Sequence record: MT611523.1 | Origin: Escherichia phage DK-13 | DNA length: 64,000 bases | Direction: 5' to 3' (one strand) | Shown here: piece by piece, positions 3,273-63,517 of the stretch | Numbering within the stretch: the stretch's first letter is position 1 | Layout of the letters: each line of letters starts with the position of its first letter | The notes under the pieces: model-generated | Databases searched by the model: none | Seen by the model: only the letters and a program-made list of their open reading frames with translations | What the model was told of the DNA's origin: nothing | Made by a program: the position numbers and the translations under genes

Positions 3273-3562
3273 AACAAAAAGTCCAGCGTATTAGTTTTCT
3301 GTGTACGAGACATACTTGGGCGAAGCAGGTTATCATCATATGCTTCATTCATAATCTTATCAATGATTCCCGCAGGAATGTATCGTGCAAAATTACCTTC
3401 AGGAATTCCACGTTCTTCCAACCAGGCGGTCGCAGCTTCCAGATAAGACATTTCAGTTGACTCAACCATGGCTTCAATATCAAGCCCATTTTGCTGCTTA
3501 CTAATCGCCCCGGAAGGCGATTCAGTTTTCTGTGTATCGAAATTAACTAAAGAGGACATCAT
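3269..3562 (-). CDS. 33: late-transcription accessory protein gp33 (start uncertain)
   Basis: ORF-track frame 3269..3655; I place the start at ATG 3562 (MMSS...) because of GGAG SD 4 nt upstream; C-terminal ...TNTLDFLL tail; position between dsbA and 59 as in T4. Confidence 0.55.
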   Translation of the reverse strand: MMSSLVNFDTQKTESPSGAISKQQNGLDIEAMVESTEMSYLEAATAWLEERGIPEGNFARYIPAGIIDKIMNEAYDDNLLRPSMSRTQKTNTLDFLL

Positions 3563-3812
3563 AGAGCTCCACAGCTTCGGTTTTTTCATCTTCAAAACGT
3601 TCACGAGTGCCTTTATGATACAGGCCGAGCTGTGTATTGAACATCTTACCGTCAACGCCTAATTCAGTTTTTGCCTTATCTTTAAGGTCTTTAATTTCGT
3701 CTGCATATGCTTCCATTTTTAATTTGGTATCGGAAGCAGCTTTAATCAGCTTGGCTAGTTCAGCACCATGAGTATCAGGACAAAATTCAACTTTCACTTT
3801 TTTCTCTTTCAT
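3543..3812 (-). CDS. dsbA: dsDNA-binding protein DsbA-like (89 aa)
   Basis: 89 aa ORF between rnh and 33, matching T4 dsbA position and size. Confidence 0.7.
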   Translation of the reverse strand: MKEKKVKVEFCPDTHGAELAKLIKAASDTKLKMEAYADEIKDLKDKAKTELGVDGKMFNTQLGLYHKGTRERFEDEKTEAVELYDVLFS

Positions 3813-3820
3813 AATATACC

Positions 3821-4765
3821 TTAATAAAATTCAGCAATATTTGCAGTTAGTTTAGACAGACCAGACTTAACAAAGTAAGGATAAACTTTACTTTTGGCTG
3901 GGATAACGTAGTTATTATATCGTTCTAATATTGAAGCGGATATTTCCGTTGGGATAAAGTCCATATCAATCAACAATTGGTTTTCACAGAATCTATTATA
4001 TTGCTCTTCTGTTAAAAGCGTTTTCAAAACGTCATGGTCGTAATAGTTGAGTGCAATTTGTTCAAGCTCAGCTGCACGGGTTGGCGGAGTACGTTCACCT
4101 TCTTCATGAGTGTAATAAAAATCACCACGAACCTTGATGCTCGACACGTTATCTTTTTTGTCGCCTTTAACAACCTTTGTCACGCAATCCATAAGGGCAT
4201 CGCCTGATTTAGTTTTGACATATTTTTTCTGCATCGGGGACCATTGTTTCACCCCAGGGAATTTATGCAACTGGGTAAAGTCACCATCCGAAGAAACAAC
4301 CATAACCGGATGTCCGAGACTGGTGAGCAACTTCGTTAATACTGCAATATGGTCGTCTGCCTCGACTTTATCAATATTCATCACGATGTAAGGCATGTAT
4401 TTTTCCATTTCATCGATGATGATGTGCATGGCAGCATGTAGACCTTCCCAATCGAATTGAGACTCTTCACGAGCCTTTGCACGGTTTTTCTTATAATAAT
4501 AAGATTTAGTCCGGCGCCAATAGCCATTCTTCGAGTTATCAACACAAATAATTGGAATTGTATAACCAAGCTTTTTGAACTGTACGATATTTTTTCGGAT
4601 AGAGTTCAGAACCAAGTGTCTGGTCATTGCAGTTGTTACTTTCGGAAAGCCTGCGTCTTTGCCGAATTCCTGAAAGGCTGCAGCCATGATAAGCTGACTA
4701 AAATCGAGTAACTGAAAACCTTCTTTTTGACGGTCTTCTTCAGGGAGTAAAAAATCTAAATTCAT
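3821..4765 (-). CDS. rnh: RNase H (5'-3' exonuclease / flap endonuclease)
   Basis: 314 aa; motifs YYKKNR.KAREES.WDWEG, DKYEADDHIAV, SSDGDFTQLHK resemble T4 RNase H; synteny upstream of gene 34 on opposite strand. Confidence 0.9.
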   Translation of the reverse strand: MNLDFLLPEEDRQKEGFQLLDFSQLIMAAAFQEFGKDAGFPKVTTAMTRHLVLNSIRKNIVQFKKLGYTIPIICVDNSKNGYWRRTKSYYYKKNRAKAREESQFDWEGLHAAMHIIIDEMEKYMPYIVMNIDKVEADDHIAVLTKLLTSLGHPVMVVSSDGDFTQLHKFPGVKQWSPMQKKYVKTKSGDALMDCVTKVVKGDKKDNVSSIKVRGDFYYTHEEGERTPPTRAAELEQIALNYYDHDVLKTLLTEEQYNRFCENQLLIDMDFIPTEISASILERYNNYVIPAKSKVYPYFVKSGLSKLTANIAEFY

Positions 4766-4822
4766 ATGAACCTCTGTTCAATTAGTTGACTCGATTATAT
4801 TAGCATAAAAATTTTAAAGCAA

Positions 4823-4830
4823 TATAAATA
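4823..4830 (+). promoter_or_regulatory. T4-type late promoter motif upstream of gene 34
   Basis: exact TATAAATA about 30 nt upstream of gp34 ATG. Confidence 0.6.
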
Positions 4831-4861
4831 CACATATACCAAATCAATAAGGATAAAGCAC

Positions 4862-7800
4862 ATGGCCGATATTTTAAAACCAGCATTCAGAGCAACATCC
4901 GGTCTCGATGCTGCTGGTGAGAAAGTCATTAATGTCGCAAAAGCTGATTACTCAGTTTTATCAGACGGCGTTAACGTAGGTTTCTTTATAGAAGAAAACA
5001 CAATTCAACAATATGATGCGACGCGCGGATACAAAAAGAACTTTGCGGTTATTAATGATAACCGTATTTGGGTTGCTCAACGTGATATTCCGGCACCAGC
5101 TGGAGCATTTACCCCTCAGTATTGGTTAGCAACTCGTACTGACCCTAAATGGGAAACTGTTGCATCTCCAACTCGTCAGCTTAGCTCCGGGGAATTTATC
5201 GCAGTCGACTCAGCTGCAAGCTTTACCACATTTACATTGCCTCCGAACCCGACTGATGGTGATACCATCGTTATTAAAGATATCGGCGGTAATACCGGTT
5301 ATAATGAAATTAAAGTTCAATCGAGCAATGTGCCTGGTCAAGGTAACCAAAAGATTGTTCGCTTTGGTAATCAGTATTCAGAAGTTTTAATTACCAAACC
5401 ATTCTCTTATAACATGCTTATCTTTTCAAACCGCTTATGGCAATTTTGGGAAGCAGGTAACGAAGAACGTGGTATCAGAGTAGAACCGTCGACCGGACGT
5501 TTCCATGCACAAGCTGGCGACTTTATTATGCGTCGTTATACAACTGGTGCACCGATTACTTTCATTCTTCCTAAGTATGCAAACCAGGGTGATATTGTCA
5601 AATCTGTTGATATCGATGGTATGGGACCAACGTTCCACCTGATGGTTGAAACCTTTGACACTAGTTCCAGTCTTGATAAAGCTGGTCAGCATCAAATGGA
5701 ATTCCGCACCACAGGTGATGGTTTCTTCGTTTATGATGCTGCCGAAAAACTCTGGCATGTTTGGGACGGTGATTTTAAAACTCGTCTTCGCGTTATTCGC
5801 GACAGCGTTAAACTTTTACCAAACGAAAGTGTCATTGTATTTGGCGAAGATAACTCAACTCCGGCAACGATTAATATCGATTTGCCAACTAATGTTTTGC
5901 AAGGCGATATTGTTAAGATTGCGCTGAACTATCTCCGTAAATCGCAGACTGTTAATATAAGAGCTGCTGTTGGCGATAAGATTGCAACTGACATTAAATT
6001 GCTGCAATTCCCTAAACGTTCCGAGTATCCACCAGATACAACTTGGGTGATGGTTGATTCATTGACCTTTAATGGCAACATCAGTTATACTCCGGTTATT
6101 GAATTATCATATGCAGAAGATGCAGTGTCTGGAACAAGTTATTGGGTTGTCGCTCAGAACGTCCCGACTGTCGAACGAGTTGACTCATTAAATGATTCCA
6201 CGCGTACACGTCTTGGTGTTATTGCTCTGGCAAACCAGACTCAGGCAAACGTTGACCATGAAAATAACCCAGAAAAAGAACTCGCAATTACCCCTCAGAC
6301 TTTAGCCAACCGTGTTGCTAAAGAGAACCAACGAGGCATTGCCAGAATCGCAACGACTGCCCAAGTAAATCAGAACAGTGATTTTGCATTTGTTGATGAT
6401 GTAATTATTTCTCCGAAAAAACTCAATGAACGTACGGCAACAGAAACGAGACGCGGGCTCGCAGAACTCGCCACACAGCAAGAAACCAATGCGGGTGTAG
6501 ATGATACCACAATTATAACTCCAAAGAAACTGCAAGCTCGCCAGGGCTCAGAATCGCTATCCGGTATTGTAACTTACGTTTCAACAACCGGTGCAACTCC
6601 TGCTGCTTCGCGTGAATTAAATGGTACAAACGTTTATAATAAAAATACGGTTAATCTGGTTGTTTCTCCGAAAGCTCTTGACCAGTACAAAGCTACTTAC
6701 ACCCAACAAGGTGCGGTTATTCTTGCGGTTGAAAGTGAAGTAATTGCTGGTACTTCTCAATCTGGCTGGGCAAACGCAGTCGTTACTCCAGAAATGTTGC
6801 AGCGCAAAACTGCTCTTGATTCCCGTATCGGTTTAATCGAGATTGCAACTCAAGTAGAAACAGATGCAGGAACCGATTATACCAGAGCTGTGACTCCTAA
6901 AACGTTAAATGACCGTAAAGCATCAGAAACGTTAACCGGCATAGCCGAGATTGCTACGCAATCAGAATTTGATACTGGAACTGATGATACTCGTATCTCA
7001 ACTCCATTAAAAATTAAAACTAGATTTAATAATACTGCTCGCACTTCTGTTAATGCATTAAGTGGTTTAGTAGAAACAGGGACGCTCTGGGACCATTATA
7101 GCCTGAATATTCTTGAAGCAAATGAGACTCAACGCGGTACGGCAAGATTAGCAACTCAGGGTGAAGTCAATACCGGCACTGACGATAAAACAATCGTTAC
7201 TCCGCTTAAATTGATGTCGAAAAAAGCCACTGAAAATGCCGAAGGTATTGTTCGCATCGCGACAAACGCAGAAGCAACAGCAGGCACATCAAAAGTCTTG
7301 GCCATCAGTCCGTCGGCGCTGAAATATATTGCACAAACGGAAACAACCTGGGAATCATCTGAAACACTGCGTGGATTTGTTCGTTTATCTTCTGGTACAG
7401 CTACTTCGGCCGCAACTACAACGACTGGTGCAGGATTTACATATGCAAATGGTGTGTATACTCCGGACCCAAGTAAACTGGTTAGCTATTCAAAATCTGG
7501 TTATGCAGTTTCACCTTACGAATTAAACCGCGTATTGCAAAACTTCTTACCGATAAATGCGATGGCTGTTAATGCTGAAAAACTGGATAACCTTGATTCG
7601 ACCCAGTTTATTCGTCGTGATATTGCTCAGACTGTTGAAGGTGTGTTAACTCTTACTAAACAGACAAATATATCTGCTCCGGTTGTATCGACGAGCACTG
7701 CAGTGTTTACTGATGTAACGGCTGGCACTTCGACGTTCGGAACTGTGAATGTTGTTAACGGAACTAACAAGTGGAAAATCACCGCTCCTTCCGCCGGAAC

Positions 7801-41358: not shown

Positions 41359-42108
41359 CTAAACTTTTGCGTACTTCCAAAAATGGCCGTTTGACCTATA
41401 CATTCGGCCTGTCTTTTTATTTCTTTTACAAGCTGTGTATATATTTTGAGTATTGCCCGCCAATTGTAATAATTCCTTTGCCTCAGCTCCCGAATTATAC
41501 TTTTCAAGTATATTACCAAATTCATCGCATCTACAAACCGGTGTTCCAGTTGCCTTTCGGCATGCTTCTCGGCGCAACTTTTTCGTTTCTTCGGTTTGCG
41601 GATTTTCTTTAAATCGTCTCATTTGTGCATCGCGATTCTTTTGCCGTTGTTCATCAGTAATTGGATTATTTTGATAATACAATTTTAATGAGTTGGCTAT
41701 TTTGCTTTTGGTTTTATCAGACGCAGGGTGGTCGTTATGTCGCTTGTGTAAAGCAATTAACATTTTGTCTTTAAACTCGGATTGACTCCATAAGTTTGAC
41801 ATATGTTCACTAACGGCTTTACTATGTTCTTTTCGCATCCATTCATATTTTGCGCTATCAAATTTGTCACCACACATCCGGTGTATAGCAAACATTAATT
41901 TAGAAAGTCGATAAATTTTAAAAAGTAACAAATGCGCAATAAAATGTTCTCTTGCTGATAACAATACCAAATTATCTTCGGTGTCAGGCCCACCCAAACA
42001 CCTTGGTAGTATATGATGGGACTCCGTATAAAATGGGATATTCTTTTTGTTTAGGCCCCTTGCGAGGCCTTTGTCTATTAATTTATTATATAATTTTAGA
42101 TAATTCAT
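41359..42108 (-). CDS. HNH-family homing endonuclease-like protein
   Basis: 249 aa; HNH motif ESHHILPRCLGGPDTEDNLVLLSAREHFIAH; N-terminus paralogous to plus-strand HNH ORF at 56212; inserted between 61 and 56. Confidence 0.75.
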   Translation of the reverse strand: MNYLKLYNKLIDKGLARGLNKKNIPFYTESHHILPRCLGGPDTEDNLVLLSAREHFIAHLLLFKIYRLSKLMFAIHRMCGDKFDSAKYEWMRKEHSKAVSEHMSNLWSQSEFKDKMLIALHKRHNDHPASDKTKSKIANSLKLYYQNNPITDEQRQKNRDAQMRRFKENPQTEETKKLRREACRKATGTPVCRCDEFGNILEKYNSGAEAKELLQLAGNTQNIYTACKRNKKTGRMYRSNGHFWKYAKV

Positions 42109-47485: not shown

Positions 47486-48656
47486 CAAGGTCTTCCATCA
47501 TATCTAAATCGTTTTCGATATCTGCAGCGGACGGTTTTGTCTTACCTTCAGGAGCAGAGTATTTTTCAACCTTGGAGGCAATAAGCGCATCAACTTCGGC
47601 ATCAACAACAGCATTGCTATCGATTGCACCCAGTTGGTAATGGCGTTTGATTGCATCACGGAAAGGTTCGTGTTTAAACAGCGGCCCCCAGAATTCGGTG
47701 CAGTTAGTATCTTTTGCGCGCCATGATTTTTCTTCGCGGACCATTTCCCCGGTCTCAACATCAAGATATTCACGGTTATACCAACCAACTTTTGGTTTAA
47801 CCACAAATCCGATTTCTATTGCCATATCAAGCAGGCCAGAATACGGGTCAATACCACCATCGAATTTTACATCAATGAAGAATTTACTTTTCTCTTTGAC
47901 CATACGAGATTTTTCGGCGTTCAGAACAAATTGGAAGCCTTCAAGTTCTTTACCAGTTTCTTTAATCTGACGTTTACCGATAATGAATACAGTGTCCGCG
48001 GAATACATAACACCTGTGCCACCGGTCATAACGGTTTTACTGTACATCTCAATCGTCTCGATTGTATGGTTAACCGCGACACAAGGAATATCCTTGATAC
48101 TAAAATAAGGGGTAACAATACGGAACAGAGATTTCAGGGATTTAGCACGAGTCATATCGCCAACGACTTTTTCGTTCATCGCATCTTCTGTTTCTTTTTT
48201 CGACGCCATGTTACCGATTGAGTCAATAAAGATAATGACTTTTTCACCACGCTCAATTGCTTCAAGCTGGTTAACCATATCAACTTTCAATTGTTCAACC
48301 GACTGGATTGGTGTATGGATAACACGCTCCGGGTCTACTTTCATTGCACGAAGATATGCTTCTGTGATACCAAATTCTGAATCATAGAACAAACAGATTG
48401 CGTCGGGGTATTTGTTCATATATGCAGAGACCATCGTTAAACCCATATTGGATTTAAAGTGTTTTGACGGACCAGCAAAAATAGTCAAACCTGACTGCAT
48501 ACCACCATCTAGTGCACCGCTGATTGCAATGTTCAGCATCGGGATTTTTGTACGAACTACATCTTTATCATTAAAGAACTTGGACTTGGTAAGAGTCGCA
48601 GTCATTTTGGATGTAGAAGCTTTAATCAAACGGGATTTCAAATCTGCAATAGACAT
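47478..48656 (-). CDS. uvsX: recombinase UvsX (RecA-like)
   Basis: 392 aa; MSIADLKSRLIKAS..K....L..SKFFN.KD...T..P.LN.A.SG; Walker A-like GPSKHFKS; resembles T4 UvsX. Confidence 0.93.
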   Translation of the reverse strand: MSIADLKSRLIKASTSKMTATLTKSKFFNDKDVVRTKIPMLNIAISGALDGGMQSGLTIFAGPSKHFKSNMGLTMVSAYMNKYPDAICLFYDSEFGITEAYLRAMKVDPERVIHTPIQSVEQLKVDMVNQLEAIERGEKVIIFIDSIGNMASKKETEDAMNEKVVGDMTRAKSLKSLFRIVTPYFSIKDIPCVAVNHTIETIEMYSKTVMTGGTGVMYSADTVFIIGKRQIKETGKELEGFQFVLNAEKSRMVKEKSKFFIDVKFDGGIDPYSGLLDMAIEIGFVVKPKVGWYNREYLDVETGEMVREEKSWRAKDTNCTEFWGPLFKHEPFRDAIKRHYQLGAIDSNAVVDAEVDALIASKVEKYSAPEGKTKPSAADIENDLDMMEDLDE

Positions 48657-48735
48657 TCATTTTTTCCATAGGCACCATTATATTTTTCTCACAGGTTTAA
48701 GATAGGATAATTATATCACTGTATTTTCAGAGCAA

Positions 48736-48864
48736 TTAACGATTGAATCCACGATTAATTGCACGTTCAACAATCTTCCGGGTCTGACGTTTGTCCCACC
48801 AGTACATAAAACCAATACCAAATGCAGACAACAGCCATAGGCTAATCAATAACATACCAATCAT
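48736..48864 (-). CDS. small hydrophobic peptide (42 aa)
   Basis: manual translation MIGMLLISLWLLSAFGIGFMYWWDKRQTRKIVERAINRGFNR. Confidence 0.3.
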   Translation of the reverse strand: MIGMLLISLWLLSAFGIGFMYWWDKRQTRKIVERAINRGFNR

Positions 48865-48885
48865 AATATTCTTCTCGCAGTTTGT

Positions 48886-49389
48886 TTAGTTAATACCTTG
48901 GCGTGCTTTCTCTTTAGCTACACATTTATTAATATAGCTCAGACGGTTTTGAGCAGAACGCTGATACATATCGCGGTACTCATTAGCTTTTGGAGAACCC
49001 GTCTCTGCTGCCTGATAAGCTTCTGCGCGCATGATGTTTATCTGCATATTGATGTATGACATGCAGACCTGTGAAATCTGGTTAACAGTATCCAGGTCAT
49101 TTTGTCGCTTGGTTTCTGCTTCCAGCTTGGCAATGATTTCGTCATGCTTCGCAGCTTGCTCGCGTTTGTACTCAATTTCTTGTTGAGCATATTTCGCGCA
49201 GTTGTTTCCACATTGATTGTTGTCGCGTTTGTAGATAAGTCCAGTACCACCTTTGAAATCAAAGGAACCATTATGCACCTGACGGTCTGCAGCAATTCGC
49301 GCTTTACCAATCTCGTTGGCATTAACAACATCACCCTGGTAAGCACAACCAGATAGCAGCATAACAGCTGCGATAGCTAACTTTTTCAT
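48886..49389 (-). CDS. putative lipoprotein (167 aa)
   Basis: signal peptide plus lipobox MKKLAIAAVMLLSGC; coiled-coil-like remainder; occupies the interval where T4 has beta-gt and gene 42. Confidence 0.55.
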   Translation of the reverse strand: MKKLAIAAVMLLSGCAYQGDVVNANEIGKARIAADRQVHNGSFDFKGGTGLIYKRDNNQCGNNCAKYAQQEIEYKREQAAKHDEIIAKLEAETKRQNDLDTVNQISQVCMSYINMQINIMRAEAYQAAETGSPKANEYRDMYQRSAQNRLSYINKCVAKEKARQGIN

Positions 49390-49537
49390 TTTGCTTCCTA
49401 ATTAAAACATTCATAGCGGGCTTGGAGCCCCAAAAATACCCAACCCAAAATTAAAGTTGGAATCATATGTGGAGTCATTATTGCCCAGTAGATTGACATA
49501 CTAAAAAATGCAATCAGTACAATAATTGTAATTATCT

Positions 49538-49780
49538 TCATTTTGATTCCTTGATGATAATTACTTGTGCGTTTGATTTACGTTCAGCAACGAGTGCCCA
49601 GATAAATGCAATAAACCATCCGACCATTGTCCAACCTAACAGAAGGTTAACAAAGAAGATTCCGCAATTACTTTTGGTACCACGCAGCAGCGCGATAATC
49701 CACGGCAGAAAATATGCCAGTGCAGCCAGGAAGAAAGAACCAGCCCCAAGAACAACAGTACCCGCAATTAATGTTTCCAT
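49538..49780 (-). CDS. imm: immunity protein Imm-like (superinfection exclusion membrane protein)
   Basis: 80 aa with two hydrophobic segments; immediately downstream of gene 43 as T4 imm. Confidence 0.55.
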   Translation of the reverse strand: METLIAGTVVLGAGSFFLAALAYFLPWIIALLRGTKSNCGIFFVNLLLGWTMVGWFIAFIWALVAERKSNAQVIIIKESK

Positions 49781-49817
49781 TTTAATATCCTTAAGTTATT
49801 CATCAGTTGATGAGGTA

Positions 49818-52564: not shown

Positions 52565-52649
52565 TTGATTTCCTTTATAGTCGAGTGATTGACTTTTGTT
52601 TTATGACTTGACGCTATTATACTACAAAAGGGACCGAAGTCCCTTTGCT

Positions 52650-52865
52650 TTAAATTTCTATTATACGACGTTCGATAGTCGGATTACCATTTTCATCTTT
52701 AGTTCTAACCATAGCCTGGAAGACTCTCTGTCCAGGATGCAATAATTTATTGAGTTCCTTTTGAAATTCTATTTGAAGTTCTTCGGAAAGGTCAAAAATG
52801 GTTTGAGTTGGGGAAAGTCCATATATTTCTTTAAGGCGTTCACATGTTTCAATTTCATGCTTCAT
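52650..52865 (-). CDS. hypothetical protein (71 aa)
   Basis: track start 52877 is TTG; ATG at 52865 right after regA stop; C(UUCG)G-type hairpin downstream. Confidence 0.4.
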   Translation of the reverse strand: MKHEIETCERLKEIYGLSPTQTIFDLSEELQIEFQKELNKLLHPGQRVFQAMVRTKDENGNPTIERRIIEI

Positions 52866-52866
52866 A

Positions 52867-53235
52867 TCAATTACCAATTGTATATTTGGCTACGAGCTTC
52901 CAGTCATCTTTTTGTTTGAATGAGATAACACGGAAGTTATTTGTTACTGCGAACAATTCATTATGCTCTTCTTCTTTGATAGCGATTAAGCCCCAGTCTT
53001 CGAGCAATTGGGCGATGGAATCACGGCGCTGATAGTCTTCGCCGTCAATATCCACCTGACGACCATCCATGCGCAGCATTTCTTTGAAGTGAACAATATA
53101 ATAACGACCTTGCTTCTGGAGGATGTGGCAGCTCTGGTACAGCACACGGTCTTTATTATTTGCGATGCCCATACGGGTCAGAGTTTCTTTAACTTTCAGG
53201 AAGTCTTCAGGTTGCTTTAATGTAATTTCAATCAT
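52867..53235 (-). CDS. regA: translational repressor RegA
   Basis: 122 aa; MIEITLK.PEDFLKVKETLTRMGIANNKD.VLYQSCHILQK.G.YYIVHFKEMLRMDGRQV resembles T4 RegA. Confidence 0.9.
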   Translation of the reverse strand: MIEITLKQPEDFLKVKETLTRMGIANNKDRVLYQSCHILQKQGRYYIVHFKEMLRMDGRQVDIDGEDYQRRDSIAQLLEDWGLIAIKEEEHNELFAVTNNFRVISFKQKDDWKLVAKYTIGN

Positions 53236-54821: not shown

Positions 54822-55517
54822 TTAATCTTGGAATTCGTGGCTAGAACCTTGTTCCATTGCAATCACATAGCTTGCTTGTGTACCTTCAAACTTCGTAGCA
54901 AATTTATCGTCTTTCGCCCAAAGCATAACACGGTAATCAGCCGGAATCATTTTCATGTTCAGTTTGTTAATGATAAATTTAAACGCTGCATCACCTTCGT
55001 AATCGCCACACACCAGGGAATACAATGGACGCGCTAACTCTTTATCTTCGAGCTGATTATAACCATGGATAACAATCTTACCGTCTTTGTTGGTGATTGC
55101 AAAAGTATCCAGTGACAAACCACCAGCCACACGCAGAAGTTGCTGCAGGTCACTACCTTTCAGGTCGAAGATAACCTTAGCTACCGGGAAAGGAATCTTC
55201 TTAGCAGGGAACACGATAGTGCTCGGGTCAGCCGCTGGCCAGTGAATCGTTGAACGTTGGTCTTTGATAATGATATTCGATGCATCTTCAGCCAGAGATA
55301 CTTCGGCTTGGTCAGTTACCAGGCCCAGGATACTTAAGAAGCCGTTCAGGTCATAAATTGCAGCTTCAAAGTCGATTGTATCATTGATTTCAGATTCACC
55401 ATATGACGCTCCAGTCACAGAACGAGTCAGGATGGTATTACCTGGCTTAAGCATAATGCCAGAGTAAATGGAAGTGAAGTTTTTCAGAACTGCGATAGTG
55501 TCTTTAGAGAATTTCAT
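54822..55517 (-). CDS. 45: sliding clamp gp45
   Basis: 231 aa; MK.SKDT.A.LKNF..I.SGIMLK.G...TR.V.G..Y.E..I.D.IDF..AIYDLNGFL.IL.LV resembles T4 gp45. Confidence 0.93.
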   Translation of the reverse strand: MKFSKDTIAVLKNFTSIYSGIMLKPGNTILTRSVTGASYGESEINDTIDFEAAIYDLNGFLSILGLVTDQAEVSLAEDASNIIIKDQRSTIHWPAADPSTIVFPAKKIPFPVAKVIFDLKGSDLQQLLRVAGGLSLDTFAITNKDGKIVIHGYNQLEDKELARPLYSLVCGDYEGDAAFKFIINKLNMKMIPADYRVMLWAKDDKFATKFEGTQASYVIAMEQGSSHEFQD

Positions 55518-55547
55518 TTAATTACCTTTTATTCAAATCAAAATTAA

Positions 55548-55955
55548 TTAAGCAACAACTGCCATTTGTTTGCGGATAGCTTCCGGAAGAGATTCAATAT
55601 ACTCTGGAAGTTGCGCAGCAATAATAGAACCAGCTTGGACCAGGTGGTCGTCGAAGTCAACACAGTAATCATCTTCGAGACGTTCGGAACCGTCACGGTC
55701 GATAACCAGTTTAGCACCAGCAGCCAGTGAATCGTTGTAGTGATTACGCATCAGTTCAATCCACTTATCAGATACATCAGTATCAATCACACCGTACAGC
55801 ATGAATTTAATTTCTTGCGGCAGAGACTGCAGACGGGCAGCAGATGCTTCATCACATGCCAGGACCCAGGATTTGCGGATGCGGTTTTGGTTGTGTGGGT
55901 TGGCGTCGGTGCGGATGGTTTTAACTTGGATATCTTTAGCAGTTACGTTGTTCAT
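55548..55955 (-). CDS. rpbA: RNA polymerase-binding protein RpbA-like (start uncertain)
   Basis: track start 55979 is TTG; ATG at 55955 chosen; position between 45 and 46 as T4 rpbA; similar size. Confidence 0.45.
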   Translation of the reverse strand: MNNVTAKDIQVKTIRTDANPHNQNRIRKSWVLACDEASAARLQSLPQEIKFMLYGVIDTDVSDKWIELMRNHYNDSLAAGAKLVIDRDGSERLEDDYCVDFDDHLVQAGSIIAAQLPEYIESLPEAIRKQMAVVA

Positions 55956-55979
55956 AATATTCTCTCTATTCATTATCAA

Positions 55980-56198
55980 TTAATCAAAGTATTCATATGC
56001 AAACCAGGCATTGTGTCTGTTCGCGATTATTTTAACATATTCTTCACCGAAAGCGTTTTGTAAGTCACGTTCAGTAACAAGGTGTTCATCTTTCGAAAAG
56101 GTATTAACTAACACATATCGTTTAATTTCAGGGACAGCCAGTAAATGCTGCCCGGTTAAAAAATTGCTCATAAATAATATTATCCGTTGCAGTATCAA
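55980..56198 (-). CDS. hypothetical protein (72 aa or shorter)
   Basis: track start is TTG; internal ATG at 56171; position as T4 45.2. Confidence 0.4.
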   Translation of the reverse strand: MILQRIILFMSNFLTGQHLLAVPEIKRYVLVNTFSKDEHLVTERDLQNAFGEEYVKIIANRHNAWFAYEYFD

Positions 56199-56211
56199 AC
56201 AAGGGTCTGAT

Positions 56212-56928
56212 ATGAATTATAACATCATTTACCAAAAGCTTATTAGCAGAGCATTGAATCGCAAATTAACCACATACTCTGAAAGTCATCACATTATACC
56301 CCGTTGCATGGGTGGGGCAGACGACGCTTCAAATCTTGTTGATTTAACTCCCGAGGAACATTTCGTTTGTCATCAACTGTTGGTCAAAATGCATCCAAAT
56401 AATGCTTCTTTGGTCTATGCCGCGCGCATGATGACAGTTTCCTCACCAAACGCCGACAGAAGCAAAAACAAATTATTTGGATGGCTTCGTCGTAAAAACT
56501 TGGAAGCTCAACAAAATAAAATTTTCTCCGATGAAACCAGAAAGAAAATGTCAGAATCCGCCAAATTAAAACCGAGAGTTGAATGTCCACACTGTGGAAA
56601 AACCGGTCTCGTTGGCAATATGAATCGTTGGCATTTTGATAACTGTTCCAAAGGTCCAAACAAGGTTGTTCATACTATTCCAGAAAAACAAAAGCAAAAA
56701 ATTTCAGTAGGATTAAAACAAGCTAAACATGAAATTTTAACTTGTGAATTTTGTGGTCTTGAAGGTAAAAAGTGTGTTATATCCACTCACCAACAATTCT
56801 GCAAATCCAATCCAAACCGGAAGAAAAAGGTGGACCCCAAAATTCAGTGTCCACATTGTAATGTAGTCGGTACGCCAGCCAATATGAAACGTTGGCATTT
56901 TGATAACTGCAAAATGAAGCCTCAATAA
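56212..56928 (+). CDS. HNH-family homing endonuclease-like protein with three C-terminal zinc-finger-like repeats
   Basis: track ORF 56011..56928; start moved to ATG 56212 (MNYNIIYQKL...); HNH motif ESHHIIPRCMGGADDASNLVDLTPEEHFVCH; repeats CPHCGKTGLVGNMNRWHFDNC, CEFCGLEGKKC, CPHCNVVGTPANMKRWHFDNC; only plus-strand gene in this early block. Confidence 0.75.
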   Translation: MNYNIIYQKLISRALNRKLTTYSESHHIIPRCMGGADDASNLVDLTPEEHFVCHQLLVKMHPNNASLVYAARMMTVSSPNADRSKNKLFGWLRRKNLEAQQNKIFSDETRKKMSESAKLKPRVECPHCGKTGLVGNMNRWHFDNCSKGPNKVVHTIPEKQKQKISVGLKQAKHEILTCEFCGLEGKKCVISTHQQFCKSNPNRKKKVDPKIQCPHCNVVGTPANMKRWHFDNCKMKPQ

Positions 56929-56933
56929 GAGGC

Positions 56934-58616
56934 TCATTCCAGAACAGTAAATCGACCGACTTTTTTCATTTGAAGATGCTGTCCATATGCTTCTGGGTCG
57001 TGTTCACGATGGCTAATGATAAACACGTTTTGACCTTCCAATTTATTAATAATTGCCTGGATAGCTTTGATGCCTTCGGCGTCAGTGGCTGAATCCATGA
57101 CCTCATCCAGAATCAACGTACTAATTTGCACACCAGATACTTTCGCAGCAATATCACGCCATGTAAACAGCAATGCGATATCGATACGAGCTTTTTCACC
57201 CTGGCTAAATGATGCATAGCTGAAGTCTTCACGTCCACGAGATTTAATCGTTTCGTTGAACTCTTCATCTAACGTAAAACTATAATCAGCTTCCATAACT
57301 TTAAGATAAGCGTTTATCTGCTTATTAAAGATAGGAATATATTTCTTAATAATCGCGCCCTTAATACCAGAATCTTTCAACATATCCGTTAAGATACCAC
57401 GTTGATATTTTTCCATCACAAGGTCGGATTTTTGTTTGACTATTTTATCAAGCTGGTCTTGAAGCATTTTAATGTCTGCTGCATGGTCAATAAATTCCGA
57501 CTTAGCTTGCTCGATTAATGCTTTAACCTTTTTAGCTTTTTCGACAGTCTGGACTAAGGTTTGTTTCTTAGTTTGAATGTCTTGAGCTATTGTACGCTGG
57601 TTTTGTCTTGCCTTGGTATACGCATCAAATTGCTCTTGAACAGCATTCTGGCGAGCTTTATGCTTATCAGCTGATGCATTACATTCTTCAATCTTTGACT
57701 CAATCCTGGCGACAATGGGGTCTCCTGGATGCAACTGACTGGCACAAGTCTGACAACAACCACCTTTCTCGTACAGACCAACAACCTTTCGGTAATCGTC
57801 TATCTTCGACTTAATCAGGAATGATTCCTGCTTTAACTTCGTGAGTTCATGCTCAGGGTCTTCTCCCAAGATTATCTCGGTCAGTCTTGTTGTTGCTTCT
57901 TCGATAGTCGTCTTGATTCCACGTGCTTCTGTGGCAAGTTCATCATACATCGTTTGCAGCCGCAACAGATTATCACCTGATAATTTTCTTTGACGGTCTT
58001 CGTTGTCCTGATAGATTTTAATCTGTTGAACAATACCATCATGCTGCACATCCATCACCTGGATTTGACTATTGACTTCACGGATAAGAGATTTGTTCAG
58101 CTTATCCATATCGGCCAGTACAGAAACCTCTAAAAGGTCTTCGACGAGTTTTCTTCTTGCAGGAGTGGATAGGCCCATAAAAGGGGTATATCCAGCTGTG
58201 CCGAGTACGACAATCTGTTTGAAGCTTGCGTAGGACATTCCAATGAGCTGTTCAAATTCCGCTTGGAAGTCTTTACTGCTGGCAGATTCATCAAGACGTT
58301 TACCGCCACAAGAGATTTCAAAAACATTGGGTTTTTGCCCGCGTTTGATATAGTATTCTTTTCCATCATATTCCATCCACAATTCAACGAGCATATCTTT
58401 TTTGTTGCTCGAGTTAATCAACTGGCCTTTCTTTACATCACGGAAAGGCTTACCGAACATAGCAAAGGTAACCGCTTCAAGGAACGTAGATTTACCCGCA
58501 CCATTCTTGCCGGTGACCAGAGTTTTTTGGACTTTATCCAGTTCAACAGTAATCGGTTGAGCACCAACCGACATAATATTTTTATAGATAACTTTCTTAA
58601 GCTTAAAAGTCTTCAC
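56934..58616 (-). CDS. 46: recombination endonuclease subunit gp46 (SbcC/Rad50-like ATPase)
   Basis: 560 aa; Walker A GKNGAGKST; coiled-coil middle; C-terminal ...LILDEV.D...; resembles T4 gp46; track start is GTG. Confidence 0.93.
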   Translation of the reverse strand: MKTFKLKKVIYKNIMSVGAQPITVELDKVQKTLVTGKNGAGKSTFLEAVTFAMFGKPFRDVKKGQLINSSNKKDMLVELWMEYDGKEYYIKRGQKPNVFEISCGGKRLDESASSKDFQAEFEQLIGMSYASFKQIVVLGTAGYTPFMGLSTPARRKLVEDLLEVSVLADMDKLNKSLIREVNSQIQVMDVQHDGIVQQIKIYQDNEDRQRKLSGDNLLRLQTMYDELATEARGIKTTIEEATTRLTEIILGEDPEHELTKLKQESFLIKSKIDDYRKVVGLYEKGGCCQTCASQLHPGDPIVARIESKIEECNASADKHKARQNAVQEQFDAYTKARQNQRTIAQDIQTKKQTLVQTVEKAKKVKALIEQAKSEFIDHAADIKMLQDQLDKIVKQKSDLVMEKYQRGILTDMLKDSGIKGAIIKKYIPIFNKQINAYLKVMEADYSFTLDEEFNETIKSRGREDFSYASFSQGEKARIDIALLFTWRDIAAKVSGVQISTLILDEVMDSATDAEGIKAIQAIINKLEGQNVFIISHREHDPEAYGQHLQMKKVGRFTVLE

Positions 58617-62101: not shown

Positions 62102-62367
62102 CAGTACACCAATTGGGCAGCTTCTAAAACATCATCAAGCTTATCAAACTGGTCAATATAATCAATCCCACCAACTTCATCTTTAGCATACAACCAATAT
62201 TGGTGAAATTCATATTCAATAATAAAGTGGTCACCTTCAATCTGGAGAACGCCAGCATTATTAAATTGAACTGCATAACCCGTAAAGCGAACATCATTCA
62301 GGAGTTCTTCTTTCATAGTAATCATTTCCAAGTTTTTATCGTAATTAGAGAGTTTTATTTTAATCAT
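62101..62367 (-). CDS. hypothetical protein (88 aa)
   Basis: ATG ORF; tightly packed with neighbours. Confidence 0.45.
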   Translation of the reverse strand: MIKIKLSNYDKNLEMITMKEELLNDVRFTGYAVQFNNAGVLQIEGDHFIIEYEFHQYWLYAKDEVGGIDYIDQFDKLDDVLEAAQLVY

Positions 62368-62623
62368 TTAAGTAGTCCAGGAATTCGTCTAATGTCATGC
62401 CTTCCGCCCAAGCTTCCCAAGCATCGATTTTAGTGTACTTGGTTTTAGTACACATAGGATAGATTTTGAATTCATATCCCATTGAAATGAAATAATTTAA
62501 AGTCCTTTGTAAATAGTAACCTTGACTAATTTTATGAGCTCGGCGAATTCCATTAGCATACGTATGTTTGTATGATACTATTACCGCAACACCTTCAGGT
62601 AATTCAATAGCAGGACACATCAT
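62360..62623 (-). CDS. hypothetical protein (87 aa)
   Basis: ATG ORF. Confidence 0.45.
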   Translation of the reverse strand: MMCPAIELPEGVAVIVSYKHTYANGIRRAHKISQGYYLQRTLNYFISMGYEFKIYPMCTKTKYTKIDAWEAWAEGMTLDEFLDYLND

Positions 62624-62946
62624 TTCGCACCCTTAACAATTTTCAGGTCAACAAAACCTTTCTTACGTTGGGAATTCATACGCTTGATGGCTTTGTCAGA
62701 AACTTCTTTGTTTTCACGTGGAAGCGGCAGACCAAACGCTACTACATCAAATTCATTCAGGATATACTGAACAAGACTTTCACGAATACGCGCTTTACCC
62801 ATTGTCTGACCTTCTGCAATAATCAACTTCTGTACATCGCCTTCCCACTGGTCCAGAATCTCAGGGGTAACGAAACCAGATTTCATCAGAGTGTTAACTT
62901 TAGCAAATGCGAAATTAGCGATGATGTTAGTGATAGATGCAGTCAT
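62620..62946 (-). CDS. hypothetical protein (108 aa)
   Basis: ATG ORF; start overlaps upstream stop. Confidence 0.45.
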   Translation of the reverse strand: MTASITNIIANFAFAKVNTLMKSGFVTPEILDQWEGDVQKLIIAEGQTMGKARIRESLVQYILNEFDVVAFGLPLPRENKEVSDKAIKRMNSQRKKGFVDLKIVKGAK

Positions 62947-63018
62947 GATATATTCCTCAGTCTCATTAAATTAAAATTTTATTATCCTGGGGCCATTATA
63001 CCATGACCCCGTTGGTTT

Positions 63019-63216
63019 TTACTGCGCTTTAGCGCCTTTCCAACCTTCATACATCATCGCGGCGGAAATTAATATTGCTCCTGCACATTTTGAATAATAG
63101 AGATTCCAAAACCAGTTTAGAAAAACTTCATCATCAATACCTTGAGCTATCATATTTTCAAAGAACTGACGACGAGATTCAGCAATTCGCTGTGATAATT
63201 TAGATTGTGGATTCAT
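63019..63216 (-). CDS. hypothetical protein (65 aa)
   Basis: track ORF 63019..63309; start moved to ATG 63216 with GAGGAAA SD, removing a large overlap. Confidence 0.4.
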   Translation of the reverse strand: MNPQSKLSQRIAESRRQFFENMIAQGIDDEVFLNWFWNLYYSKCAGAILISAAMMYEGWKGAKAQ

Positions 63217-63223
63217 ATTTTCC

Positions 63224-63517
63224 TCAGCTGTAACGATAACACTCGTTTGATTTACGTTTTGCAACACGATGAGAAGTATTATAATCCAAATCATCCTCAA
63301 CGTATACATCTTTTTTCAACTGACGAACTTCTTTACGCAGTTGACGATTCATCTCATTCTTGACTTCTGAATCAACGCCACGCATACGCTTCCATTTGTC
63401 TGAACGGAAGATATTTTCTTCAACTTGTTCTTGACTTACACCATCAGGCGCCTGACGACGCCCTGAATAATAAAAATCTTTTACAGACAATTCTTTGCGA
63501 CGAATAGTTTTACCCAT
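63224..63517 (-). CDS. hypothetical basic protein (97 aa)
   Basis: ATG ORF; Lys/Arg-rich. Confidence 0.45.
   Translation of the reverse strand: MGKTIRRKELSVKDFYYSGRRQAPDGVSQEQVEENIFRSDKWKRMRGVDSEVKNEMNRQLRKEVRQLKKDVYVEDDLDYNTSHRVAKRKSNECYRYS

Follow-up and report, generated by a model that had tools for sequence, protein, structure and literature searches.

A putative free-standing Mob-type homing endonuclease cassette between genes 45.2 and 46 of T4-like phages, linked to a diverged end of gene 46

Introduction

Between genes 45.2 and 46 of Escherichia phage DK-13, a T4-like phage of the genus Gaprivervirus, stands a single gene that reads against everything around it. Its presence raises the question of what kind of element it is, and of how much of the neighboring DNA belongs to the unit that moves. 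We analyzed 64,000 nucleotides of this genome (record MT611523.1), referred to here as the window. The original prediction, made from the letters of the window, described the only plus-strand gene in a long minus-strand block and a mobile insertion between the gene 45 block and gene 46. Both statements hold. The gene is the sole plus-strand gene in at least 18 kb, all other coding sequences being on the minus strand in four annotated relatives, and it is polymorphic for presence and absence in several genera. In this orientation it would be antisense to the early and middle RNAs from genes 46-45.2-rpbA-45.

Free-standing endonucleases of T4 provide the context in which such a gene can be understood. 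Their cleavage sites lie hundreds of base pairs from the endonuclease gene itself, and the flanking DNA is co-converted. MobE makes a nick in nrdB, a conserved gene next to its own, and owes its inheritance to gene conversion (PMC2790892). The cuts of SegF and SegG fall within a conserved neighbor, some way from the endonuclease gene, and the DNA in between is necessarily co-converted (PMC2988022).

Results

An intergenic gene with an ordinary leader and a folded 3' end

The open reading frame encodes 238 amino acids and runs from an ATG at 56212 to a TAA at 56926-56928, with genes 45.2 and 46 both intact on either side (Table 1). A program-made reading frame opens at a TTG at 56011, and all annotated relatives use the ATG at 56212. 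The coordinate 56169, at which the gene had been said to begin, is the position of a promoter-like motif and not the start of the frame. The gene is intergenic, outside any intron or intein, and an Rfam search of 55500-57600 with E up to 1 gave no match to an RNA family.

I-TevI and Aeh1 mobE are known for hairpins that hide the ribosome-binding site. A hidden site of this sort was rejected for the present gene: its 5' leader folds no better than shuffled sequences (z +0.59), so that no hairpin would mask the ribosome-binding site. The region 56890-56960 around the stop codon folds at -20.2 kcal/mol (z -3.8), and none of 200 shuffles was as stable. The hairpin in this region may serve as a transcript end or as a stabilizer. 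It is without a T-run and was not called by a terminator scan; an intrinsic terminator 3' of the gene was rejected, the scan having given two weak internal sites only.

Table 1. Features of the 45.2/46 locus in window coordinates
Feature	Position	Strand	Basis or remark
Left cassette junction, first 45.2 codons, MADF... -> MSNF...	56158..56171	-	allele comparison
Late-promoter-like motif CATAAATA, 7/8 vs TATAAATA	56169..56176	+	overlaps CAT start codon of 45.2
Shine-Dalgarno-like AAGGG, 6 nt 5' of ATG	56201..56205	+	read from sequence
Homing endonuclease gene, 238 aa	56212..56928	+	ORF reading; 100% identity to annotated proteins; PHROG 655
HNH (beta-beta-alpha-metal) motif, residues 24-54, ESHHIIPRCMGGADDASNLVDLTPEEHFVCH	56281..56373	+	
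NUMOD3-like linker helix, residues 102-117	56515..56562	+	Pfam NUMOD3 E 0.23, weak
Zinc finger 1, C125-X2-C128-X12-H141-X3-C145, CPHC...WHFDNC type	56584..56646	+	sequence
Zinc finger 2, C178-X2-C181-X11-H193-X3-C197, CEFC...HQQFC type	56743..56802	+	alignment to I-TevIII
Zinc finger 3, C213-X2-C216-X12-H229-X3-C233, CPHC...WHFDNC type	56848..56910	+	alignment to I-TevIII
Hairpin AGCCTC-AATAA-GAGGCT	56918..56934	.	endonuclease stop codon in loop; abuts gene 46 stop codon
Diverged last ~66 codons of gene 46, linked to endonuclease gene	56934..57137	-	mismatch profile, identity
Candidate recognition/cleavage site in endonuclease-free genomes, coding SGVNINTLILDEVFDSATDVEGVK (Walker B, D-loop, Rad50-like gp46)	57060..57137	-	inferred

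A Mob-type HNH domain joined to three zinc fingers

The 238-residue protein matches PHROG 655, 'homing endonuclease', at E 8e-67 and is 100% identical to proteins of phages P479 and PSD2001 that are annotated 'homing endonuclease'. Its N-terminal 126 residues are 44% identical to MobB from a phage of the T4 species (E 4e-30), and by sequence the N-terminal HNH domain is of the Mob type. The HNH motif that had been predicted was found as H26-H27...N41...H50...H54, all invariant in an alignment of 60 homologues, and these residues align with the HH...N...H of McrA and Cas8-HNH. The Pfam HNH profile (PF01844) scores 16.8 bits (E 0.008), under its 21.4-bit gathering cut-off, and NCBIfam has no family at cut-off for this protein; in precomputed annotation, PF01844 is carried by two homologues, P0087 and P0106, and PF07460, of the NUMOD3-like linker, by many. 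An AlphaFold2 model (mean pLDDT 93) predicts a beta-beta-alpha unit at the HNH region. The gene is under purifying selection, with dN/dS of 0.06-0.11 against orthologues and values of 0.03-0.11 when the HNH domain is included. It also has the predicted paralogue in the window. The reading frame at 41359..42108 is indeed related (E 4e-20, 38% identity over 104 aa, and again PHROG 655) and lies on the minus strand.

The C-terminus holds three Cys2-His-Cys units, CX2CX11-12HX3C, of the I-TevIII type. Three finger repeats had been anticipated and three are present; the proposed form, CPHCxxxGxxxNMxRWHFDNC, fits only fingers 1 and 3, whereas the middle finger is CEFCGLEGKKCVISTHQQFC, differing in sequence and alike in ligand arrangement. 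The ligands of finger 1 are conserved in six orthologues, the finger matches the second I-TevIII finger (E 9e-5), and it is modeled by AlphaFold2 as a beta-hairpin plus helix. Finger 2 aligns with the first I-TevIII finger, TCDFCGHIGKG...HNDRCKLNPNR, and finger 3 with the second, its four ligands being invariant in 60 homologues. The X11 spacing of finger 2 is one residue under the published I-TevIII range of X12-13. BLASTP aligns residues 154-236 with I-TevIII 180-266 at 37% identity (E 9e-12), and a match to PHROG 12324 (E 4e-11) supports the assignment. A profile comparison of the fingers with I-TevIII was discarded as circular because its alignment contained I-TevIII itself.

In I-TevIII the CX2CX12-13HX3C fingers bind zinc, are required for DNA binding and lie within the dimerization region, which allows a double-strand break (PMC1865063). 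BLASTP found no similarity between the HNH domain of our protein and that of I-TevIII. Judged by these comparisons, the protein is a Mob-type HNH nuclease domain followed by a tail of three I-TevIII-type Cys2-His-Cys fingers; it shares a module with I-TevIII and is not its orthologue.

Empty sites in two genera

Whether relatives have an empty site had been set beforehand as the refutation test for mobility, and empty alleles were found in about 30 Gaprivervirus and about 440 Tequatrovirus records. In our phage collection, five Gaprivervirus records have the gene, and the approximately 30 without it have a 34-nt intergenic spacer instead, between flanks that are 90-94% identical. All five carriers have an uninterrupted reading frame, and their proteins are 97-100% identical. 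Tequatrovirus has the gene in 60 records. Orthologues lie at the same 45.2/46 site and in the same orientation in Dhakavirus, Tequatrovirus and Klebsiella phages.

A predicted late promoter

A late-promoter motif with one mismatch, about 40 nt upstream, was part of the original prediction and is indeed there. CATAAATA agrees with the consensus at 7/8 positions and begins 43 nt 5' of the ATG, and on the opposite strand its C-A-T serves gene 45.2 as start codon. The late consensus TATAAATA spans -13 to -6, and the first position of CATAAATA is a C, a base without documented function there; in T4-like phages this position is the least conserved of the motif, its T being only weakly kept, and the documented bases are A or T (PMC1524935). 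Neither motif is enriched in the window, which holds two copies of CATAAATA against 4.7 expected and, its genes being mostly early, seven of TATAAATA against 5.2 expected.

The case for a late promoter is strengthened by other genera. All six orthologues examined (Dhakavirus, Tequatrovirus, Klebsiella phage) carry TATAAATA without a mismatch at the corresponding place, 41-53 nt before the ATG. The Dhakavirus counterpart reads CATATAAATA, from which CATAAATA is derived by the loss of 2 nt. Most likely, as far as motif and conservation can tell, a gp55-type late promoter belonging to the gene itself drives its expression late in infection. Two other kinds of promoter were considered and rejected. 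The best sigma-70-type candidate, TTAAAA-16-TATTAT at 56156-56183, reaches 9/12, and such sites number 2 against 4.0 in shuffles. A MotA-box-like TGCTCA at 56165-56170 was rejected as a T4 middle promoter because the nearest TAnnnT is only 7 nt away, which is too close.

The cassette reaches into gene 46

The insertion between 45.2 and 46 stands as predicted, but the inserted unit exceeds the reading frame and includes about 200 bp of diverged gene 46 3' end. At the left junction, all endonuclease-carrying Gaprivervirus alleles read ...AAAAAATTGCTCAT and all endonuclease-free alleles ...AAGAAGTCAGCCAT, and leftward of it identity is 96-99%. On the right, mismatches against all six endonuclease-free relatives are 7, 15, 20 and 7 per successive 50 bp of the tract and 0-4 elsewhere. 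Identity is 74.6% in the tract and 96.7% in the following 300 bp. The tract has dS 2.6 and dN 0.13, against dS 0.19 and dN 0 in adjacent gene 46 sequence.

This diverged 3' end is strictly linked to the endonuclease gene in two genera. Sequences at least 96% identical to the window's tract occur in the five carrier records only. The same pattern is seen in Tequatrovirus when RB32 is compared with T4 and RB55, and the number of records with at least 95% identity to the RB32 tract is exactly 60, equal to that of Tequatrovirus carriers (the two compared as totals). The mobile unit is thus about 970 bp (56158-57137), more than the reading frame alone.

A search for the donor of the gene 46 tract found none, the best match outside the five carriers being 76.7% identical, and carriers from other genera have tracts that share only 63-73% identity with that of the window. 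Every lineage differs from the others in the last 200 bp of gene 46, with identities of 71% for FB against MX01 and 79% for T4 against RB55. FB and MX01 are both carriers, and alongside the tract they are 88-96% identical. T4 and RB55 are both without the endonuclease gene, and the RB55 tract is carrier-like.

These last 200 bp encode the Walker-B to H-loop part of a Rad50-like recombination nuclease subunit. Within 57060-57137, endonuclease-free alleles of the two genera differ from each other at 3-5 nt per 24, and every carrier allele is at least 4-7 away from them; position 57079 is one of only two that are fully diagnostic.

Discussion

Our analysis places the gene, with good confidence, as a free-standing ("intronless") T4 Mob-type homing endonuclease cassette with a target in gene 46, which the sequence comparisons favor as the best explanation as a whole. 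The target probably lies in the Walker-B/D-loop coding part, to which the linked tract points. We infer nuclease activity, late expression, the position of the target, the kind of break (nick or double-strand) and homing itself. We propose a model where, in a cell co-infected by an endonuclease-free relative, the enzyme would nick or cut that relative's gene 46 about 100-200 bp before the stop codon, in the Walker-B/D-loop coding segment. The break would be resected and repaired by the phage recombination machinery with the endonuclease-carrying genome as template, and the recipient would in this way acquire the endonuclease gene together with the part of gene 46 that lies between it and the break. 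The carrier would itself be immune because its own gene 46 stretch is a diverged allele, which would still encode a working gp46 C-terminus.

It is unlikely, in our assessment, that the protein is a genuine homing endonuclease with a target outside gene 46, be it the empty 45.2/46 spacer, 45.2 or rpbA, and that the tract is a remnant of foreign DNA from the original insertion. The tract matches no close sampled donor and could therefore mark recombination history rather than a target. The variation of the last 200 bp of gene 46 in all lineages points the same way, as do the few altered codons at the left junction and the habit of intron-type endonucleases, I-TevIII included, of cutting near their insertion site (PMC2988022). 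A neutral remnant, however, should erode by recombination with the many endonuclease-free relatives, whereas the tract is full-length in all five Gaprivervirus and all 60 Tequatrovirus carriers and the sequence 200 bp further in is already homogenized to 97-99%. The unit is also asymmetric, reaching about 200 bp into gene 46 and no more than 14 bp into 45.2, which fits a break on the side of gene 46. Insertion would, moreover, already destroy an intergenic target, so a linked tract would not be needed.

The nuclease might instead be kept chiefly for its benefit to the phage, by damaging co-infecting relatives (interference, partial exclusion) or host or other DNA, with homing incidental. Homing endonucleases do cause marker exclusion between T-even phages (PMC2988022, PMC2993671), and purifying selection on the whole protein, a conserved late promoter of its own (predicted) and the retention of one locus across several genera would suit such a role. 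We nonetheless consider it quite improbable. The gene is a minority allele, present in 5 of about 40 Gaprivervirus and 60 of about 500 Tequatrovirus records, and a minority allele in both of these well-sampled genera is typical of a selfish element that is gained and lost in cycles and untypical of a gene with general benefits. The two accounts also overlap in mechanism, since exclusion is homing's population-level face. Hardly credible is the idea that the gene is a relic without catalytic activity, kept only for a DNA-binding protein or carried along as neutral cargo. The promoter motif is degenerate in the window's lineage, CATAAATA having lost 2 nt relative to CATATAAATA, the Pfam HNH score is under cut-off, and endonucleases that have become defunct can persist, T4 I-TevIII being an example (PMC2790892). 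Against this stand the intact frame in all five carriers with their 97-100% protein identity, a dN/dS of 0.03-0.11 that extends to the HNH domain, and the conservation of all catalytic and zinc-ligand residues.

A further idea, which we hold to be doubtful, is that the last 200 bp or so of gene 46 may be a long-running arms-race locus, in which each specificity variant of the endonuclease, with its diverged finger tail, would have a matching gp46 C-terminal allele that is immune to it. If so, the variants could cut each other's alleles as well as endonuclease-free ones. Such a contest would explain the hypervariability of the tract between close relatives (FB and MX01), the carrier-like tract of RB55, which is without the gene, and why the amino-acid sequence of an essential ATPase motif region has been dragged along.

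The gene itself is already represented among annotated phages. In phage P479 the gene recurs as QWQ55795.1 ('homing endonuclease'), alike in site, orientation and length and with 100% protein identity. RB32ORF054w ('putative site-specific intron-like DNA endonuclease, similar to mobB') agrees in site, orientation and length as well and is 60% identical; RB32 is listed with two mob-like HNH genes (PMC2993671, Table 5). There is no substantial difference between these orthologues and the window's gene, except that the window's lineage has CATAAATA for TATAAATA and has lost the spacer between promoter and 45.2.

Among characterized systems, the T4 Mob family (MobA-E) is the closest in its HNH domain, which in MobB is 44% identical, and in standing free between conserved genes. 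The Mob architecture has been described as an 'HNH domain plus a distinct C-terminal region' (PMC2988022), and the C-terminal half of our protein, a zinc-finger array, is unrelated to that of MobB. The site differs from those of the T4 mob genes, T4 having no endonuclease gene at 45.2/46 (PMC2988022, Table 1). In contrast to mobE, which is promoterless and co-transcribed with nrdA, the window's gene is on the opposite strand with a predicted late-type promoter of its own. I-TevIII, from the nrdB group I intron of phage RB3, has two fingers homologous to fingers 2 and 3, with ligands in the arrangement CX2CX11-13HX3C; the window's gene differs in lying outside an intron, in having three fingers and not two, and in a predicted target other than nrdB. 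SegF and SegG, the 'intronless homing' enzymes of T4, share the mode of spread, which for the window's gene is read from the sequence polymorphism only, but they are GIY-YIG nucleases and ours is of the HNH family.

As a gene, this is in all likelihood an ordinary selfish homing endonuclease that adds little new: the identical protein is annotated in GenBank, and the orthologue in RB32 has been listed as mob-like since 2006-2010. The new detail is that the cassette always includes the last 200 bp or so of gene 46 in a deeply diverged form. For annotation, this means a mobile unit of about 970 bp, 56158-57137, that extends beyond the reading frame. It also leads to two predictions: T4 and other T4-like phages that lack the endonuclease should have the target in the part of gene 46 that codes for Walker B and the D-loop, and the diverged gene 46 allele of carriers should resist cutting. 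Because natural carrier and empty alleles exist in several genera of easily grown coliphages, the locus offers a convenient system. It would suit the study of intronless homing by HNH enzymes, of DNA recognition by I-TevIII-type fingers, and of the local mosaicism that selfish nucleases create in an essential recombination gene.

A mobile gene kept intact

The window phage is T4-like, of the genus Gaprivervirus; over the 2.2 kb around its endonuclease gene it shares 98.8% identity with Escherichia phage P479 and 97-98% with PSD2001, MN01 and Yersinia phage vB_YenM_P8. The original prediction described a lone plus-strand gene inserted in a minus-strand block between 45.2 and 46. All other CDSs across 18 kb of the four annotated carriers, as we call records with the gene at this site, lie on the minus strand, and the description is therefore correct. 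The proposed start coordinate, 56169, belongs instead to a promoter-like motif; the ORF opens at ATG 56212, with AAGGG 6 nt upstream.

Features of the endonuclease locus and of related elements in the window
Feature	Position	Strand	Remarks
Endonuclease ORF	ATG 56212, TAA 56926-56928	+	238 aa; ATG is the start in every annotated relative
Finger unit 1	C125/C128/H141/C145		CPHC...NMxRWHFDNC form
Finger unit 2	C178/C181/H193/C197		CEFCGLEGKKCVISTHQQFC
Finger unit 3	C213/C216/H229/C233		CPHC...NMxRWHFDNC form
Gene 45.2	55980-56171	-	left neighbour of endonuclease gene
Gene 46	56934-58616	-	right neighbour of endonuclease gene
Diverged gene 46 tract	56934 to about 57137	-	last ~66 codons
Candidate target segment	57060-57137		Walker B and D-loop coding; inferred from allele comparison
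T4 late-promoter-like motif	56169-56176		CATAAATA
Second Mob-like HNH gene	41359-42108	-	249 aa; PHROG 655, E 6.6e-45

The gene occurs in 5 Gaprivervirus records, while some 30 others with 90-94% identical flanks are ~730 bp shorter here, 45.2 and 46 being separated by a 34-nt spacer; these empty alleles, for which a comparison had been suggested, mark the gene as mobile. Orthologues with 60-77% protein identity occupy the same site and orientation in Dhakavirus (FB, MX01, Bp7), Tequatrovirus (RB32, RB33, RB51, F2) and T4-like phages of Klebsiella and Cronobacter. Within Tequatrovirus, 60 records have the gene and about 440, T4 included, do not. The frame is intact in every carrier, and in both halves of the protein comparison with MN01 gives a dN/dS of 0.06 and comparison with more remote orthologues ~0.1; the gene appears to be kept functional. 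In Bp7, IME281 and phage 04086 the endonuclease match is split into two pieces spanning 732 nt, which may reflect frameshifts, sequencing errors or real decay. Bp7 (3400-4900 of its locus) also has gene 46 annotated as two pieces, 3400-3582 and 3662-4900, and the 3' end of gene 46 beside the endonuclease gene is without annotation.

A stable hairpin (56918-56934, AGCCTC-AATAA-GAGGCT, z -3.8) lies exactly between the convergent stop codons: that of the endonuclease gene falls in its loop, and that of gene 46 adjoins it. In RB32, F2 and PhiKR8 the two 3' ends overlap by 4-8 nt instead, and gp46 is two residues longer.

A chimeric protein

The best family match of the protein is PHROG 655, 'homing endonuclease' (E 8e-67). 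Its family is large, with 3683 relatives at E up to 1e-5. The predicted N-terminal HNH motif is borne out by a signature at residues 24-54, ESHHIIPRCMGGADDASNLVDLTPEEHFVCH, whose H26, H27, N41, H50 and H54 do not vary across 60 aligned homologues. This segment scores 16.8 bits against Pfam HNH, under the 21.4 cut-off, and weakly matches IscB and the solved structures of McrA and Cas8-HNH. Over its N-terminal 126 residues the protein shares 44% identity with MobB from a T4-species phage (E 4e-30).

Three C-terminal repeats had also been claimed, and the C-terminal half does contain three Cys2-His-Cys units, although the CPHC...NMxRWHFDNC form given for them holds only for units 1 and 3. Units 2 and 3 are homologous to both zinc fingers of I-TevIII (37% identity, E 9e-12), whose motif is CX2CX12-13HX3C with one zinc bound per finger; DNA binding requires these fingers, which lie within the dimerisation region used for the double-strand break (PMC1865063). 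Unit 1 and the preceding NUMOD3-like helix form a module of wide occurrence that Seg-like GIY-YIG endonucleases also contain. A confident AlphaFold2 model from the 60-sequence alignment (mean pLDDT 93) places a beta-beta-alpha unit at residues 24-60 and gives each of the three small fingers a hairpin and a helix. In whole-chain structure searches, HNH domains and zinc-finger arrays matched only locally and marginally. The protein is thus chimeric, with a nuclease head of the Mob type joined to a tail of I-TevIII-type fingers.

A linked gene 46 tract and a predicted target

Mismatches were profiled in 50-bp bins between the window and 5 carriers and 6 non-carriers. The first bins inside gene 46 hold 7, 15, 20 and 7 mismatches against every non-carrier (background 0-4), and carriers are nearly identical to the window there. 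The tract shares 74.6% identity with UPEC07, the following 300 bp 96.7%; tract dS is 2.6, at saturation, and dN 0.13, compared with 0.19 and 0 in adjoining sequence. Because synonymous divergence is saturated, the tract reads as an old foreign allele and not as recent mutation. On the left, just the first three 45.2 codons differ (MSNF vs MADF). The cassette thus delimited is larger than the ORF.

Among 50,697 phage records, the window's tract is at least 96% identical in the five carriers only, the next best reaching 76.7%. RB32 differs from T4 and RB55 by 5, 19, 17 and 4 mismatches per bin over a background near zero, and exactly 60 records match its tract at 95% identity or above, as many as carry the gene (a comparison of totals). 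Linkage between tract and gene is strict. RB55 (2403-2600 of its locus) lacks the gene at 45.2/46, and its gene 46 3' tract is 79% identical to that of T4, against 96-97% next door, and equally close (78.7%) to the tracts of RB32 and FB, both carriers. Loss of the gene or partial conversion may have left a resistant allele here.

Free-standing T4 endonucleases cut in a conserved gene next door, at a distance of hundreds of bp from the endonuclease gene; co-conversion of the intervening stretch is unavoidable, and carriers have to be resistant (PMC2988022). MobE, for example, nicks nrdB, which adjoins mobE (PMC2790892). The fixed length of the tract in all carriers of two genera, its sharp inner edge and its asymmetry, with ~200 bp on the gene 46 side and no more than 14 bp on the 45.2 side, suggest that the endonuclease target lies inside it. 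Within the tract, non-carrier alleles of two genera resemble each other most in the candidate target segment, which encodes SGVNINTLILDEVFDSATDVEGVK: they show 3-5 differences per 24 nt, against at least 4-7 between them and any carrier allele. Only two positions are fully diagnostic, one of them 57079. Carrier MN01 has a ~20-nt patch of non-carrier sequence in its carrier-type tract, at the equivalent of 56998-57016, so this part is probably not needed for immunity. The patch has the appearance of short-patch conversion and substitutes D for E at one residue of the H-loop region.

Promoter and expression

The late-promoter motif noted upstream, CATAAATA, is not above chance alone (2 copies in the window, 4.7 expected), but every other-genus orthologue examined has a perfect TATAAATA 41-53 nt before its ATG, then a conserved leader, and through this homology the window copy would gain meaning. 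Relative to Dhakavirus CATATAAATA it has lost two bases, which brings it into overlap with the start codon of 45.2. In late promoters of T4-like phages, conservation is lowest at the first position (PMC1524935). The orientation of the gene, opposite to the surrounding early and middle genes, likewise fits a late promoter. F2 retains the original spacer left of the promoter, which places the ancestral insertion point immediately past the stop codon of gene 46. Scans found no other promoter type and no canonical terminator for the gene, leader folding revealed no hairpin hiding its ribosome-binding site, and the locus has no Rfam family match and thus no intron.

The insertion replaced the sequence upstream of 45.2 (56172-56195, minus-strand reading). 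In the empty allele, GAGG stands ~9 nt ahead of the 45.2 ATG; the carrier allele has only ACGGATAATATTATTT-ATG, with 760 bp of antisense endonuclease gene between 45.2 and gene 46; 45.2 translation and co-transcription may be affected.

Other insertions and mosaic segments

The second Mob-like gene, directly downstream of primase gene 61 and overlapping its stop, is also polymorphic: among Gapriverviruses it is present only in RZ and Yersinia phage P8, and P479, PSD2001, MN01, TH15, SP18 and VR7 lack it. Its distribution is independent of the gene 46 endonuclease, making the window phage a mosaic distinct from P479. Gene 46 of F2 has endonuclease genes on both sides, since a gene with the annotation MobD-like homing endonuclease (4889-5714 of the F2 locus) takes the usual place of 46.1 and 46.2 immediately upstream of it. 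An extra ORF of ~190 aa separates genes 44 and 45 in VR20 (6813-7403), MX01 (497-1063) and Bp7 (484-1062), each in its own locus coordinates; the window and most Gapriverviruses lack it, another insertion/deletion polymorphism in the replication gene block. A 400-bp profile against particular relatives delimits sharply bounded low-identity patches at 48600-49800 (VR25, 70-74%), 52600-53000 (at 52600, TH15 79.5%, VR25 74.8%), 57400-58000 (TH15, VR25 and VR7, 82-88% at 57400-58200) and 62200-63400 (RZ, 76.5% at 62200), which we interpret as mosaic segments.

Relation to known systems

The endonuclease belongs with the free-standing HNH Mob endonucleases of T4, which it resembles in head domain and lifestyle. 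With I-TevIII it shares the finger module, but the two are not orthologues: the loci differ, the window gene has no intron and the head domains have no detectable similarity. An identical protein is already annotated 'homing endonuclease' in P479 and PSD2001, and the RB32 orthologue, RB32ORF054w, is annotated 'similar to mobB'; RB32 mob-like genes have been counted (PMC2993671). Our literature search found no paper testing this particular enzyme. The predicted feature is real, and its interpretation as a homing endonuclease is supported. It is an ordinary and already known one; we add only the tract of gene 46, with its strict linkage, and the target predicted from it.
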